A DNA stretch of 63,821 nucleotides, counting the filler, from Rhabdomonas costata (Eukaryota), in assembly GCA_019059605.1 (NCBI GenBank). It is 28 parts of 28 records of this genome, joined end to end, with 100 filler letters (N's around TTAATTAATTAA, not from the genome) between each part and the next. Parts side by side here need not be neighbours in the genome. Positions count along the whole stretch, not along the records: positions 43,407 to 45,585 come from JAHMHO010005025.1; 27 more parts are not named here. One strand, written 5' to 3'. The notes under the pieces were generated by a model, which was not told the origin of the DNA, did no database searches, and saw nothing but the letters and a program-made list of their open reading frames with translations. Shown in pieces: positions 16,032-46,519 of this stretch. The translations under genes were made by a program, and so were the position numbers. Within the stretch, counting starts at the first letter, position 1; the number at the start of each line of letters is the position of its first letter.

Positions 16032-17351
16032 ACGGTCAGCAAGCAGAAGCAAGACCAAGCCCGCTCCGCCCGAGAGAAGGTCGGAGAGCTCCGAAGGAAC
16101 ATCCGCCGCCTGAAGCTCGCCGCCACCGGGAAGAATGGCACGCTGTACCCCGACGCCCCGATGATCTTCCTGCTGCACTCTCCTCACAGCGAGGAGCACT
16201 ACCCCGCTCCCCATCCCGCGAACCCAGAGCTGCTCAGCCTAGTCCGCGAGCGCTTCGGGGGGGAGATCGCGACCCGCTCGGCGGGGTCGGAGGGCATGAG
16301 CCTGGACCGCGTGATGAAGATCCTCACCAGGCTCGATGACTGGGACTTCGATGTGCTCGGCCTGCACCGGGAGCTCGGAGGCAGTACGCTGTGTTTGACG
16401 ACCTACGCCTTGCTGCACAAGCACGGGTTGGTGAAGCAGTTCAACATCGACGAGAAGATCTTGGTGAACTTCCTCACGGTTGGCTCCATCTTCCGCCAAT
16501 TCTTCTTTTTGCCCCATGCGGAGGAGAGCATCTTTTTCGCTGACAATGCGCCTTTTTCGTCACCCCTTTAGGCCCTTGAGAGCGGGTACCACCCGAACCC
16601 TTACCACAACGCAGTGCACGCCGCGGACGTTCTGCAGATCATGCACTACATCATTGGGCCTGGTGGTTTGAAGCAGGTGAATTTTACTGGCAACCTTTCA
16701 CCTTTCCTCGCTCTCCCTAAAGAACGCTTTAAGACTCCGCCCTGTGGAGTGGAGAAAAGCACGTCCTTTGTTCGCTCTTCTCACCAGTGCGTGCCTGAGA
16801 GATCGTGGCGCTTTCCTTTGTGCTGCTTTGTTCAGGCTATCAACATGACCCCGCAGGACTGCCTGGCATGCCTGCTGTCGGCGGCGATTCACGACTATGA
16901 CCACCCGGTGTGCTTAGGCTACCCTGCCGAAGCTTTGGATCTATTGCTGAGGATCGCCTTTTTGCGTGGTGCGGTTTGATACCTTCGTGGCTTTGCAGGG
17001 CCTGAACAACCACTTCCACATCCGCACCAACGCCTACCTCTCCTTCCTGTACAATGAGCGCTCTATTTTGGAGAACCACCACCTGACCCAGGTGTTCGAG
17101 CTTTTCAAGAACCCGAAGTACAACATCTTTGCCACGCTGACCTTCGAGCAGTACAAGGACGTCCGTGACACGATGCTGGAAATTGTGCTGAACACGGACA
17201 TGGGCCTACACTGGAGGGTGTACCAGGCCTTTCGCCGGCGGGGGGCACGGATGCCCCGTGGACTTCGAAGGAGGACCAGAGAATGGCCATGTCCGTTGCG
17301 CTGAAGATGGCGGACATCAACAACAGCTGCCGCTCTGCCCCGATCTATGCG
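16032..17351 (+). CDS. Class I 3',5'-cyclic nucleotide phosphodiesterase, partial, with one frameshift
   Basis: Exons <16032-16478, 16572-16676, 16836-16907, 16999-17351, all GT-AG. Motifs WDFDV, NPYHNAVHAADV, AAIHDYDHP|GLNN, LYNERSILENHH, TDM, LKMADINN. Confidence 0.95.
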
Positions 17352-25016: not shown

Positions 25017-25888
25017 NNNNNNNNNNNNNNNNNNNNNNNNNNNNNNNNNNNNNNNNNNNNTTAATTAATTAANNNNNNNNNNNNNNNNNNNNNNNNNNNN
25101 NNNNNNNNNNNNNNNNGTTTGGGGAACCGTGTACCCAATCTATGACTTCGTAGGTACGGTCAAAGTCGAAATGTCTTAGAATATTACCGAACCGACTTTT
25201 TACTCGTTCACAGTTAGATTTTCTAGTTTTTCTTTCGTTCGCGACGAATATCCGATGATATAGTTGCGAACTGTGTGAACTTGGGTGACAATATCTACCA
25301 GTAGGGTGGTGCTTAGTGTAATTGGGTTTCCAGACGAACCCCTTTCTCTCTCCCGCTGGTGTCGTCGCAGGCTTTTCATGGGCTCCGAGAAATTCCCCTC
25401 GGAAGATGAGGTGTGTGCGCCTTCGCTCTGCGTGCAAGTGCGCTTGCAATTCCCTATCTTGATTGATGAAGGCTCCCCAGTGTCATCCGAGCAATTACGC
25501 TGCGCATGAAGGCTGATGGTTTATGGGTATGCATTTAATGCTAATCTACTGCTTCTGGTGCTGAGCAGAACAGTGACAGGCCCAGCAACACTGATCTCTT
25601 CTCCCCCTCCTTTTTATACGCAATGTTGATGCGAGTTGAAGTCGAACTTTATCCGCAGATCACAGATGTTGTCGTGTTCCTTAGCTCCAGCCTTGGGAAT
25701 CTTTTTATGAATGGTGGAAGGTGTAATGTCACTGGGCTGCAGTACATATTTGCCCCATATCTGCGTTACGGAGGGGGGGGGGGTTATTATACTGGGACTC
25801 AGAGAGAGCTGAAAGGCGGAAAGCAGTGATCCGAAGATGGAATGCCCAATGCAAAATGCGCAATTTTGATGGGGTTTGCCCTTCACAG

Positions 25889-27123
25889 TACTTCGAGTTC
25901 ATCAGCGGTCACGGCGGCGGCTCCAACGCTTACACCGACGACCAGCACACCAACTTCTACTTCACCGTTCAGCCCCAGGACCTGGAGCCTGCTCTGGCCA
26001 GATTCTCGCAGTTCTTTGTGGCGCCCCTGCTCAGCCCAGATGCCGTGGATCGGGAGATGCATGCCGTGGACAACGAGCACCGCAAGAACCTCCAGAGTGA
26101 TGGGTGGAGGGTGGACCAGCTGATTCGTTCCTGCGCCGCGCCGGGCAGCGCGTTCAACCACTTTGGCACAGGGGACTTGACGACCTTGAACAAGCCCGAC
26201 ATTCACAAAAAGTTGACCTATCCCTTCCTTTAGCTTTCCGCCCGCACCGTCGTTAGATCACTTTTTGGAGAGCTGGGAAGTTTCGAGAAGTTTCTAGACG
26301 AGCAGTTGTTCATCATTGTGCAATTGCTCGTCCACGATATGGATTCTAGGAGTTCCCAACTTTTCCTCTCCTTGTGTCCCCCGGCCCGATTCAGCCAACA
26401 AGGAGGAGGATGCAACATGGCCAAGATTTGGACACGGGTCATCCCGTTCAGGTTGTGGACCCTTGGGCAGGTTTGCGGAACAGCCAAAATGAACAAATTT
26501 GGAACGTATCGGTGTTGGTATGGTGGAAAACCACCTGGCCACCTGTGGCCAAATTATTCTTTCTTTATTTAGCCTCTCCGCTCTGCTTCCTGGCCAAGAG
26601 AACTTTTTGTGTTGTGCTGCTGATTGCACCTTTGAACGAAAGGAATGTTTTTGCTCCCCAAAACCCTCGAATTTACTTTATTTTTCAAATGTGGTTGCAC
26701 ACACGCATACCCACATCAGCTCTCGCCAGAACTCGTGGTTGTTGTACGCCGATAGTATTAGTTCACGCTCAGGGGCCCGTTCCCACCGCCACCCCCGTCT
26801 TCTCCACAAACAGGTTGCTGGCCTTCTACAAGGCCCACTACACTACCGGCTCCCGAATGCGCCTGGTAATTCTGGGCAGCCAGCCTCTCGACACCCTGCA
26901 GGGATGGGCCGAGCGCCACTTCTCCGCTGTCCCCGCAGGCAGTGATTATCGGGAGGTGGGTGGCGCTGGCCACAAAACGAGTCCCACTGCCGCTTCCGCT
27001 CCTGCCACTGCTGCAGTTGAAGACCACACAACGGACTCCACCGACTTCGCGAAGCGCAGGCTGCGGTGGAGCCTTACGATACCCCCGCCCTTTGGGGCAG
27101 GGAGAACTTCCCGATGGTTTCTA
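25889..27123 (+). CDS. Insulysin/pitrilysin-like M16A metallopeptidase, partial
   Basis: Exons 25889-26211 and 26814-~27123: HGGGSNAYT...TNFYF...RFSQFFVAPL...DREMHAVDNEH...FGTGDLTTL...K|LLAFYKAHY...MRLVILGSQPLDTL. Confidence 0.92.
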
Positions 27124-28321
27124 GTTTCCTGCTTTTTTGTCAATGAATGGAAGCGTTCTGTCTGATTGTTTTTCCAGTGCAGGCACTGTGCACATATCGC
27201 TACCGTCTATACTTGAGTGTACGATATTAAACCCATTATCGCTGTATTTTTCCTACCATCTTATGAAGAATCGTTCCCCTAAAGGGTCACCACACAAANN
27301 NNNNNNNNNNNNNNNNNNNNNNNNNNNNNNNNNNNNNNNNNNTTAATTAATTAANNNNNNNNNNNNNNNNNNNNNNNNNNNNNNNNNNNNNNNNNNNNGT
27401 GGAGGCTCCTCGACAGGAGACACAGAAAATGGCCCAAGCTCGTAGATTGAACCTCTGATGGTGTTGAAAGGGTTGTGTGAGGGATGTGGTTATGGTTGTG
27501 GGTACCTATCATCTCCCCGCGGCTTTTTGCGAGTTGTTTGGCTCGCGGCCACGGGTTAGGAGGGAGAGAGTTTTGGTGCCTAGCCACGCGCCCGTTGCTG
27601 GGTTGGCGTGTTTGTAATTGCACGCACGCTCTCAATAACCCTCTTCCTCCGGGTTTTTCGTATATCCCGACGTTTCTCTTCACACGTTTTTATATACGTG
27701 AGAGCTGCCGAGCGCACTTTGTGCTAGGAGGCTTTCTTCCTGTGCCCGTGACTACATCTTCTGCCGTGCGTGTGCTGGTTACCCCCAGCCCCTCAAAAGC
27801 CACACTCAATTGCGAAAAATACTTCGTTGTGATGCTGGACGGACTGCGTTGATCTGCATTCCGAGTGACACTCGGCGTTCTTCCTGCGTCCTCGCTGGCG
27901 AGCACGTGTTCTTCTTATCCGTTGAGAGAGCTTTGTCTTGGGCTCGTCATATGACGTGCCAGACGTTGGAAAAAATATTTTTACTGATCACGGAGATCTG
28001 GTAGACAGAAAGTGAAGCTACGGAAAAGTAGTGCGGAAGTCTATAAGTGGGTGCGTCTCAAGCAAAGGACGAACAAAAACGAGTGGGAGCGGATGTTTTC
28101 CTGCCTCCCGAAGGTGCAAGAATGGCCCCTTTCTGACTTTTTCAGCCATTGTCAGCCACCGTGCATACTGTTTTCTTCTTTTTTCTACAATTTTTCATCT
28201 CATCAACATCAGAGTCTTTGTCTGCTGATTCTTTTTATATATCCTTTGTTCGCTTGAATAACCCGCGACCTGTTGGCACGTCGTTGCACGTTTATTCGGC
28301 TGTGCTGTAATAGGTTTGGGA

Positions 28322-43106: not shown

Positions 43107-43407
43107 GTCCAGCACCTTGCCCACTCCTCGCCGAGACTTCTTTGCCCCGACGCAACAGTGAGCCATTCCCTCCTCTCGTAGGAGTAAGGGCCGCGGAGCG
43201 CAGCGGACGCATGCTGGTCTGCAAACTTCAACAATTATCCTTTACCCTTAAGCATGCGTCGCCTTATGAACTGCTGCAAACACAACCAACCAACCACACC
43301 CAACACNNNNNNNNNNNNNNNNNNNNNNNNNNNNNNNNNNNNNNNNNNNNTTAATTAATTAANNNNNNNNNNNNNNNNNNNNNNNNNNNNNNNNNNNNNN
43401 NNNNNNC

Positions 43408-44896
43408 GTCGGCGCGGAGCGCAGCGTGGGCGTGGGCGGGAATACGCAGAAGTATGGGGACCCGCGCAGGCTGCGGCCCGCCCTGGATTGCGGGGTGAGG
43501 GTGATCATGGCGCACTGCATTCCTTCCCGGAGGAGAAGGGGCGCAGAGGGCCTGTGAATCTCAGGGGATTACAATTTTATCGTGAACGCGTGCATCAAAC
43601 GATATGCCTATCGTGGTGACGGCATTGCAAAATTGACTATCGGTAGTTCCAAGCGTTTCAGAATCGCGGATATTTTTGCTTCCGTTGCTTTCCCAGCACG
43701 GAAGTAAAATGATGTTTTTAAAGTGGAGCTCAGGTCTACTCTACTTTTAATTTTTGCTTAGAAGTTTAAGTGTTATCTCACAGTTATCTCAAACAAGTCT
43801 ATACTGGACCCTAGTATGTATTTATTCAACAAGAAATATGGTGTGAGGTCCAGTCCGCCCCCTAGCCCCTTCCCCTCCCAATACCGCGCGAGTGAGGGGG
43901 TGGCGGAGGATGGGATCCCGTTCTTCGACGTTTTTGTGGGGATGATGGAGGACCCGAAGTACTCCGGGCAGCTGTTCGGGGACATCTCTGCGATGCCGAT
44001 CGTGACCCGGGTCCGCTACGTGCGGCAGCTCCTGCTGCGTCACCGTGACCTGCACCCCAGGTTTGAAGGAGGGGGCGGGGCGGCACCCTTGACTCGCTCT
44101 GCTCGAGTTTATTAGAGTGTTTTCATCTCACCCCGTCACCTCAAAAAAGCAAGGTATCAGTAGAATGGTAAACAACACAGCGCAAAACAAGCCAACCCTT
44201 TGGCAGTCCGAATCCAAACTTTTCACCACATTGTTTTGTTGTTTGTGAACTGGGGATTTTTTTCGGGAAAAGCATTCGCCCCAGGAAATGTGGCGGTCAC
44301 AACCGCAGGTATTTGTGTTTAGTGCTGGTGCACCTGCCCCGTTCCTTTTTTTTTGGCCGCTGGGATGAAGTGCCTTATCATTTTGTGGCAAAGCGTACCA
44401 GCCAGCCAGTCAGAAAGTATGCCCTGTTATTTGCTCCGTTCGCTTCGACAGGCAATTGTGCCACACCTGCTGTGGCAGTCAAGTTCTGCTCTGCACAACG
44501 GTGAGGGAGTCAACCGCATCCCTTCCCCCTTGCGCTTACTACCCTTGACTCGCTACCAGGAAAAGTGCATGCACCTCCCGCCCACGATTTTTCTGGACTC
44601 CCAGAAAAGCAGCAAGTCACATGGTCTACACCTCGGCTACACCTCGCACGCCCCCCAACAGGCTGCTTTACGGCACGGACTATCCCGTGCCGTGCATCCC
44701 ATTCCTCTCATTGACCGTGGCGCACGTCCTGCTGGGGCTAATCACGTGGGAGCAGAAGGCCCAGCTGGACCGCCTGTACTCATTTAACCCCCTGCTGTTC
44801 AACCTGGTGCTGATGAGGACCGTCGGCCGCACCACCACGACAGGTCAAGGACTGGACTTCACCCCCGTCCCACCCTTCCCCTTAGTGGGGAAGTAA
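43408..44896 (+). CDS. Amidohydrolase-2 family metallohydrolase, partial
   Basis: Exons 43408-43518, 43888-44060, 44662-44843/44896: GDPRRLRPALDCGVRVIMAHC|ASEG...LFGDISA...R|LLYGTDYPVP...NPLLFNLVLMR. Confidence 0.82.
43519..43887 (+). other. Non-GT-AG intron with base-paired ends
   Basis: Removal restores AHCASEG in frame; no sliding register gives a GT donor or an AG acceptor; 43529-43542 pairs with 43865-43878. Confidence 0.75.
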
Positions 44897-46519
44897 CTGA
44901 ATGCCACTTGGCGGCACCTGGACATTCGCTTTGAGGGAGATTGGGGGGGTATTGCGGGGAGAGCGGCGTTGCACCTGGTGAGGTTTCGTGAATGTACTAT
45001 ACGTGAGAGTATTCCCGCCCTGTATTGGTCACAATTGGGCCGATGGTTTGAGTCAGGGTGTGCACTAACTGTAGATGGGAGGAGGTGTTCATTTGCAGTT
45101 TTTTTTTTCCAGAAATTGCCCTGAGACGTTTTGATGACGGTCTTCGTGGCGCCACACTTTTTCTTGCCTTCTCGTTTTTGTTCCCTAGCACATGCGGCTG
45201 CAATTCTCGTTTCCTTTTGTCTTTTTTGACGTTTTGCTGGTGGCCTGACTATGTGAACTGGCATTTTTCGAAGCCCACCTCCCCTGGAGTTGGAGATGGA
45301 TGCAGAAATAAGTTGCTAACACCTGGGACGCAGTTACGAAAGCGCTGGGCTGAATTTGTGCGTGGATTTCATTTGTTCTCCCAAACTTCTCATCAGCTTT
45401 GGTCGCCCTCTGCCTTCGGCCAAACCCACTGCTAACGGAAAACGTCCCCAATTTCTATCCGCAGACTGTCTGTATGCCACAAATCAACGGAAACGTCCAT
45501 GGTCATCGCTGTGCGCCGCCGGTTTTTTCAACCAAAAAGGCCAAACCAGCTTTTCATCGGACGCGGCGTCAATCCCCCCACACCCNNNNNNNNNNNNNNN
45601 NNNNNNNNNNNNNNNNNNNNNNNNNNNNNTTAATTAATTAANNNNNNNNNNNNNNNNNNNNNNNNNNNNNNNNNNNNNNNNNNNNGGGGGGGGGGCGTTA
45701 AACGTTCAACGGCGTTTCATTTAGGCTTTCTGTTCTACTGCCCCCCTCCCCCCAGATGCAAATACAATTGTCCCTGTGGGTGAGGGTGAGTTGGGCACAT
45801 AGCGAGCTGCCTGTTGCCTGACAGGCTGTTGGTCACTACTGCGGACTGATGGCTACACACCCGCTGCTGGTAACAGGTGTGTGCTCGCGAGAGGTATGCG
45901 TTTTGGGCTCACTGCCGTGCATTCCATGTTACCCTCCTCCCTTGTGTCCCACGAGTCCCGGACCTTTTTCGCACAGCTATCAGCGATTTCTTATCACCGG
46001 CTGCCCACTTTGCTCCAATGCTGCTCTGGACTCTGATCTGAGGTTCCGCCTTCCTATTTGGCGGGGGCGGGGGCTTTCGCTCTCTGACTGTGTTTGTCTT
46101 GCGCGCCAACACATCGACAGGTGTGCAGAATAGGCAGAAGGGCATGCAGCACAACCTGTCCCGCTGCAGCCCGTTGCGTACTGAGAAAAGTGGTGCAGTG
46201 ACCAATGCGGGGGTGCTCCCGACTGAGACATTCCTTTAATATTAGTGCCTCACACAGACCCATAAATATATGGGTCTGTGGTAAATTATATGTGTCTCTG
46301 GTAAATGTAAGGGTGGTGCATACCGACCAGAGCAAAAAAAAGATATTAAACTTGTGGATGTTAGTAGACAATGACAACGATGCACTCTCCACCACGCTGT
46401 GCCGCTGTTGCGGCATGGATCCGCGCAGATGCCAGGATGGCACCTAGTAGATCCCAGCGCGCGGTTTATGAGGGCAGAGGGGAGAGGGGGCGGTGCAGAG
46501 TGTGCTGCCTTGGGTGTGC

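Follow-up and report, generated by a model that had tools for sequence, protein, structure and literature searches.

The gene fragment examined here, from Rhabdomonas costata, is interrupted within a conserved His motif by 369 nt that begin and end unlike an ordinary intron. The locus raises the question of whether this insert is removed from the transcript, and by which kind of splicing, or whether it marks a dead gene copy or a fault of assembly. We conclude, with modest confidence, that it is probably a genuine intron of the nonconventional (non-spliceosomal-type) sort known from euglenids, slidable and with an atypical geometry, and we treat it as a candidate throughout. The window, that is, the whole stretch of DNA that was analysed (63,821 bases), consists of 28 unrelated contigs of 2178–2217 nt each, joined by linkers of the form N44-TTAATTAATTAA-N44; features are not readable across these linkers. 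The insert is located in a contig of 2179 nt (43407–45585) that bears the 3′ portion of an Amidohydro_2-like gene (Table 1). Because the window is made of joined contigs, the 5′ end of the gene is cut at 43407 and the sequence to the left of it is unrelated.

Table 1. Features of the insert-bearing contig and its candidate intron, in window coordinates
Feature	Position	Strand	Remarks
Exon fragment	43408..43518	+	37 codons; 5′-cut by contig start 43407; C-terminal end ..VRVIMAHC
369-nt insert, candidate nonconventional intron	43519..43887	+	slides 2 nt left (43517-43885); GC 0.45
Exon	43888..44060	+	57 codons plus 2 nt; begins ASEG
Conventional GT..AG intron	44061..44661	+	601 nt, phase 2; ends pair with -23.5 kcal/mol over 30 nt
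Last exon	44662..44896	+	G-T-D-Y-P motif and stop codon; 84% identity to P0001, including the C-terminal tail
Insert register	43519-43887		AT..GC ends
Insert register	43518-43886		CA..CG ends
Insert register	43517-43885		GC..CC ends
Helix 5′ arm	43529..43542	+	starts 10 nt inside the 5′ border
Helix 3′ arm	43865..43878	+	ends 9 nt before the 3′ border
Upstream-exon stretch	43488..43497	+	pairs with 43882-43891 across the 3′ junction; model only, most pair probabilities 0.92-0.98
Alternative in-frame canonical pair	43495..43896	+	GT 43495-96 / AG 43895-96, 402 nt; rejected as productive junction

The assignment of the host gene rests on its homologues. Four exon-sized fragments of the window, searched alone, have no match in Pfam. 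The fragments align, across all three exons, to homologues that were themselves scored against Amidohydro_2 (PF04909, cut-off 26.4): P0012 (30.8) and P0020 (36.3) pass, and P0008 (21.4) falls below. When 1.84 billion representative proteins were searched by HMMER with the last exon, 77 matched at E ≤ 0.001, the full-length ones being about 400–450 residues long; among the named members of the clusters are bacterial ‘amidohydrolase family’ proteins, sponge proteins and one protein, derived from a transcript, of the euglenid Jenningsia. The second intron is GT..AG, as originally predicted, and in the alignment its removal rebuilds H-P-R-L-L-Y-G-T-D-Y-P, matching the homologues. The 172 visible codons, all from the 3′ part of the gene, form an open frame in which the motifs of the family are retained. 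Structural relatives are scarce. Searching the PDB with exons 2 and 3 gave chance matches only, the homologue P0012 gave none, and the profile of the alignment described below (A1) gave a single weak match (3irs, E = 0.00046) located upstream of the His motif. The split His would presumably act as a metal ligand; no solved relative spans this residue.

A second sequence touches the last exon. P0001, a predicted protein of 103 residues, comes from publicly archived short contigs, and its 84% identity to the last exon includes the unusual C-terminal tail. It begins with a translated C-rich stretch just ahead of the same exon start. P0001 is either another copy or a close relative, and its intron occupies that same position.

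The reading frames are as claimed in the original prediction, with ...ATG GCG CAC TGC ending at 43518 and GCG AGT GAG GGG resuming at 43888. The length of the insert and the 2-nt slide permitted by a GC repeat were likewise reproduced; the slide creates three registers, and none ends in AG. Read through in frame, the insert runs into a stop after 13 codons (ORF 43363..43557). For the alignment A1, 12 full homologues and the three exon translations, entered separately, were used. The end of exon 1 and the start of exon 2 fall in adjacent columns against 12/12 homologues, and the two exons abut with neither gap nor overlap in the consensus V-K-V-I-x-A-H-C-A-S-E-G, in which the His is present in all 12. 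The insert therefore splits the conserved His motif exactly, as had been proposed. The script-made 43518/43888 join was also compared by local blastp with 90 proteins, a set that includes near-duplicates from the same clusters. It matched 68 of the 90, of which 62 span the 12 junction residues, 54 of these ungapped. Among the ungapped homologues (near-duplicates included), the His is found in 51/54 and the Gly at +4 in 53/54. In several of the 8 gapped homologues, the gap opens directly after the +4 Gly, at a loop whose length varies within the family. On the evidence of these proteins, the coding junction is 43518/43888, and it is set by homology independently of any pairing.

An ordinary spliceosomal intron can be drawn over the same place. 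With the canonical pair of Table 1, the C-rich 3′ helix arm would serve as a polypyrimidine tract and the product would lack 11 residues. In its favour are the donor, GTGAGG, which is similar to those of the six GT introns that could be defined in the window, the C-rich tract upstream of the AG, the pairing of its ends, too, in the 469-nt-context fold model (below), and the reported predominance of conventional introns in R. costata (PMC8219788). However, the canonical join drops V-R-V-I-M-A-H-C and A-S-E, consensus residues that include the His retained by nearly all ungapped homologues (51/54). When compared with the 43518/43888 join over 61 homologues, it scores worse in 56, equal in 5 and better in 0, with a median loss of 21.9 bits. 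Its acceptor would be GAG, whereas YAG is used in 6/6 of the introns defined in the window, and 4 nt further upstream stands a second GAG whose use would disrupt the frame. The 33 nt that the canonical join removes beyond the insert are coding now, or were so very recently, because the 11 residues match the family consensus and the join never scores better; one would not expect 11 consensus codons to persist in purely intronic sequence. We regard splicing at this pair as improbable.

The standard for these comparisons is provided by the six GT-AG introns that could be defined in the window, all of which start with GT and end in a YAG acceptor; the GC donors mentioned in the original prediction are not seen among these six. 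Two of the six sit in a contig in which the exon junctions agree with a transcript-derived protein. This contig (25117–27298) carries a fragment of an M16 (insulinase-like) peptidase gene with GT-AG introns at 25411–25888 and 26212–26813. The gene agrees with P0091 (RCo042014) across both inferred introns except at one residue, His (27025–27) in place of Leu. Another contig (15985–18167) carries a cyclic-nucleotide phosphodiesterase-like gene with GT-AG introns at 16479–16571, 16677–16835 and 16908–16998. At about 17190–17260 of this gene, a one-base frame shift separates N-T-D-M-G-L-H from W-T-S-K-E-D-Q near six consecutive G; a damaged gene, an indel of the assembly or a tiny non-canonical intron could each account for it.

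A minor-spliceosome intron of the AT-AC type would have to run from 43519 to 43884 (366 nt, in frame). The start of the insert, ATTCCTT, counts in its favour, as we take it to be loosely like the U12-type 5′ splice-site consensus. This register nevertheless puts one extra residue into a motif that is ungapped in 54/62 homologues, and by eye no adenine-bearing element resembling a branch site is evident in the C-rich 3′ region. In a paper on the spliceosomal genes of E. gracilis, U12, U11, U6atac and the minor spliceosome all go unmentioned. We consider the U12-type reading hardly credible.

At the junction set by homology, the borders of the insert are neither GT-AG nor GC-AG in any of the three registers. 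The nonconventional introns of euglenids were reported to have a pyrimidine at the end of the upstream exon, a purine at the intron start, a pyrimidine at the intron end and a purine at the start of the downstream exon in 49–55 of 55 cases (PMC4770533). The insert has this pattern at both borders in two registers, 43519–43887 (C/A..C/G) and 43517–43885 (T/G..C/G), and at 0/4 positions in the third, 43518–43886. In the same 55 introns, positions +4,+5,+6/-8,-7,-6 are mostly CAG/CTG, and +5,+6/-8,-7 are paired in 55/55 (PMC4770533); single mutations in the triplets were reported to abolish splicing (PMC12501133). The absence of this Euglena pair from the insert, noted at the outset, was confirmed: the triplets are CCT/AAT, TCC/CAA and TTC/CCA, and no register permits more than one of the three pairs. 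The splicing code N3-CDG.. at the 5′ end with ..CH'G-N5-6 at the 3′ end, followed by R, fits none of the three registers, the only part of it present being the purine at the start of the downstream exon, in 43519–43887 and 43517–43885. The terminal 10 nt of the insert ends, folded as 10+U7+10, give 0.0 kcal/mol in all three registers and are thus unpaired. In E. gracilis, unpaired terminal 10 nt were reported for 2.91–3.74% of nonconventional introns versus 35.35% of GT-AG introns (PMC11170887). Overall, the insert shares with nonconventional introns the non-canonical borders, the slidability, a helix joining the ends and, in 2/3 registers, the pyrimidine/purine pattern; triplet pairing, the code and pairing of the terminal 10 nt are lacking.

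Other cuts that might bring the insert under the code were considered and rejected. CGG 43528–30 with CCG 43884–86 fits the code, but puts the frame out by removing 367 or 368 nt. A cut with CTG 43515–17 and CAG 43851–53 also fits, but ruins the His motif. CGG 43491–93 with CCG 43884–86 removes 405 nt, but leaves a pyrimidine at the exon start and loses the motif. Finally, the mini-helix ATT 43519–21/AAT 43880–82, taken as the triplet pair, is not C..G and would remove the Cys.

The absence of the code has a precedent within Euglena. In E. agilis, 71.8% of introns are reported as nonconventional; 84.4% of all introns and 69.1% of the nonconventional ones are slidable (PMC12501133). The genetically defined code is present in 61.2% of the nonconventional introns of this species and missing from 38.8% (PMC12501133). 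The suggestion that the insert belongs to an intermediate or lineage-specific class is therefore unneeded. Because its helix is atypically set back and the code does not fit, the insert is placed in the known minority of introns without the code, and no new class is required.

Pairing between the ends of the insert is strong. The two arms of 14 nt are complementary at 13/14 positions (93%), in agreement with the original prediction, and the first 30 nt form a duplex with the last 30 nt at -28.2 kcal/mol. This energy is equalled by 6 of 7245 site pairs of the same 369-nt spacing elsewhere in the window, at six separate loci; when the ends are joined via a U7 linker, the fold energy is matched by 45 of the 7245 same-spaced pairs. 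The pairing of the insert ends is more than chance. The six GT-AG introns of the window have end duplexes from -3.4 to -23.5 kcal/mol, all weaker than that of the insert, the second strongest belonging to the second intron of the same gene.

The fold of the whole region depends on how much sequence is included. In a 469-nt context, the minimum-energy fold contains the helix (pair probabilities 0.98–0.99) and brings the insert ends together, as had been expected. An inner extension pairs 43545–51 with 43857–63, the 3′ junction is paired to the upstream exon (Table 1), and the 5′ junction is left on a side branch of 31 nt (43498–43528) in this model. In a 409-nt context, the helix is missing, and the minimum-energy fold consists of local hairpins at each junction (z = -1.93); the pairing 43488–43497/43882–43891 is not seen there either. 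The juxtaposition of the ends thus holds in the longer context and fails in the shorter one, and the modelled helix structure is plausible but context-dependent. A scan of metagenome contigs with exon 2 gave 56 loci, all distant (best segments 34–58% identical), and no orthologous intron for covariation analysis. Rfam gave no match at the gathering score in the window and only sub-threshold matches in the contig 43407–45585.

Several repeats lie in the same contig. In the second intron, the G-rich 44068–81 faces the C-rich 44650–56, leaving 7 and 5 unpaired nt at the ends; this intron resembles the ‘conventional/intermediate’ introns of Euglena. It also contains an exact 14-nt direct repeat (44085–44098 and 44541–44554, 456 nt apart), with an 11-nt inverted match (44089–99 with 44503–13) at the first copy. 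The repeat may be the trace of an intron or other insertion nested in this one; for a nested nonconventional intron at this repeat, the Euglena code fits no register. The 5′ junction region of the insert (43514–43528) has a 13/15 direct match to 44513–44527 in the second intron, and the 3′ arm (43865–78) is also 86% complementary to 44068–81. Purine-rich and pyrimidine-rich tracts recur in this contig, and these matches may be due to chance.

The main rival to a spliced intron is an insertion that is never spliced: a recent transposon fragment or filler from the repair of a double-strand break, carried by a gene copy that is dead or unexpressed. The insert does lack the Euglena splicing code and terminal pairing, its AT-rich interior is unlike the exons (GC 0.45), and the diverged copy P0001 (84% over the last exon) means that one copy could be redundant. 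Expression gives a further argument. No protein of 31–2000 residues in the database matched exon 2: a ‘longer’ search gave 13 candidates, of which none reached E ≤ 1, and a ‘near’ search yielded none at all. The M16 peptidase exon in the contig 25117–27298 is 100% identical over 107 residues to the transcript-derived EukProt entry RCo042014, and ‘RCo’ names denote R. costata proteins predicted from the transcriptome (PMC8219788). At least one transcript-derived R. costata protein is therefore in the database in which exon 2 is unmatched, and the missing protein counts weakly against expression of the amidohydrolase gene. However, the published R. costata transcriptome is small, with a median transcript length of 430 nt (PMC8219788, Table 1). 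The codons flanking the insert still fit the family consensus and the visible part of the gene is open over all 172 codons, features at odds with a dead copy, though damage could lie in the 5′ part beyond the contig. Random filler would not be expected to have a strong helix at such symmetrical distances, 10 and 9 nt, from borders set by homology (6/7245). An unspliced insertion in a silent copy is, in our judgement, unlikely, and it carries more weight than the other rivals considered here.

The sequence has also been scrutinised for the marks of a mobile element. The insert has no terminal inverted repeats, no target duplication beyond 2 nt and no second copy within 61 kb. The proposal of a spliced MITE finds no support in these 61 kb: the inverted repeats lie 10 and 9 nt in from the ends, the stretches outside them do not repeat one another, and the flanking repeat is only GC (2 nt). 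A blastn search of the insert against the 28 contigs returned chance matches of up to 34 nt only, and no second copy was found in the other 27. As to an assembly artefact, a chimeric short-read contig could have placed foreign sequence between two true exon pieces, and the contig is indeed only 2179 nt long, among 28 short unrelated contigs. The breakpoints, however, fall exactly between two codons of a single motif, complementary arms belonging to the insert itself lie close to its two ends, and its borders are without N runs or repeats. A chimera is very improbable.

Given that the coding junction is known, that the borders are non-canonical and that the ends have an exceptional potential to pair, a route for removal of the insert as a nonconventional intron can be proposed. 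In the pre-mRNA, 43529–43551 and 43857–43878 would form a helix of about 14–20 bp, looping out the AT-rich interior and bringing the borders within 10 and 9 nt of the helix base. Removal would join 43518 to 43888, or the equivalent positions in the register 2 nt to the left, and so rebuild the conserved His motif; a transcript retaining the insert would meet a stop 13 codons in. Excision would proceed by the machinery described for Euglena. From the features above we infer the formation of the helix in vivo, the excision of the insert and the use of Euglena-type machinery. Excision of nonconventional introns in Euglena is reported to yield circular introns, as in tubA of E. gracilis.

The geometry could be read differently, as a second mode by which a deep-branching heterotrophic euglenid recognises introns for nonconventional splicing. 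In this model the helix would stand about 10 nt from the borders, the 3′ junction would be paired to the upstream exon (43488–97/43882–91) and the 5′ junction would lie on a short side branch, all without CAG/CTG. If true, the machinery would read a three-way junction and not fixed spacers of 3 nt and 5–6 nt, and such a mode could account for the approximately 39% of Euglena nonconventional introns that lie outside the published code. We consider a second mode rather unlikely and retain the reading of the insert as a codeless member of the known kind.

The insert is compared most closely with the nonconventional introns of Euglena (E. agilis and E. gracilis). In common with these, it has borders other than GT/GC-AG, is slidable via a short direct repeat and has a stable helix joining its ends; it also shows a pyrimidine/purine step at both borders in 2/3 registers and lies in a gene that has a conventional intron as well. 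In length it falls inside the Euglena range, for which averages of about 517–539 nt are reported (PMC11170887). It differs from them in the position of the helix, which begins at +11 and ends at -10 as compared to +4/-6, in lacking the CDG/CH'G triplets and the 3-nt/5–6-nt spacers (PMC12501133), and in a terminal 10-nt energy of 0.

Artemidia motanka and Namystynia karyoxenos, both hemistasiid diplonemids, also have introns with variable G/C-rich borders, and pairing of the ends has been proposed to juxtapose their splice sites (PMC12621601). These introns are short, with medians of 37 and 91 nt, and their pairing was measured in the 9 terminal nt (PMC12621601); the insert is longer, and its terminal 9 nt are unpaired. 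Non-canonical introns are reported to make up about 97% of the total in those genomes (PMC12621601), whereas 6 of the 8 intron candidates that could be defined in the window are GT-AG. The euglenid ‘intermediate’ introns (PMC4770533) provide another likeness, as a GT is found 24 nt outside the 5′ border of the insert and an AG 9 nt outside the 3′ border. The neighbouring GT-AG intron, with its well-paired ends, is another mixed feature shared with this group. ‘Intermediate’ introns are nonetheless described as having at least one canonical border at the actual junction (PMC4770533), and the homology-consistent junction of the insert has neither.

Within R. costata itself, seven putative nonconventional introns have been reported, and 29/29 complete introns in six marker genes are conventional (PMC8219788). 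The seven have non-canonical borders and a stem-loop, as does the insert; they were confirmed by a transcript and mapped reads (PMC8219788), whereas the insert is a candidate drawn from genomic sequence. If spliced, the insert would be a homology-anchored addition to a very short list in a primary heterotrophic euglenid. Because protein conservation sets its borders, we know how far the helix lies from the cut sites, and, if spliced, the insert would lend itself naturally to testing ideas on the large minority of euglenid nonconventional introns without the code. It would leave the picture of euglenid splicing unchanged, being no new phenomenon but a candidate for use as substrate in the knock-in assay that already exists.
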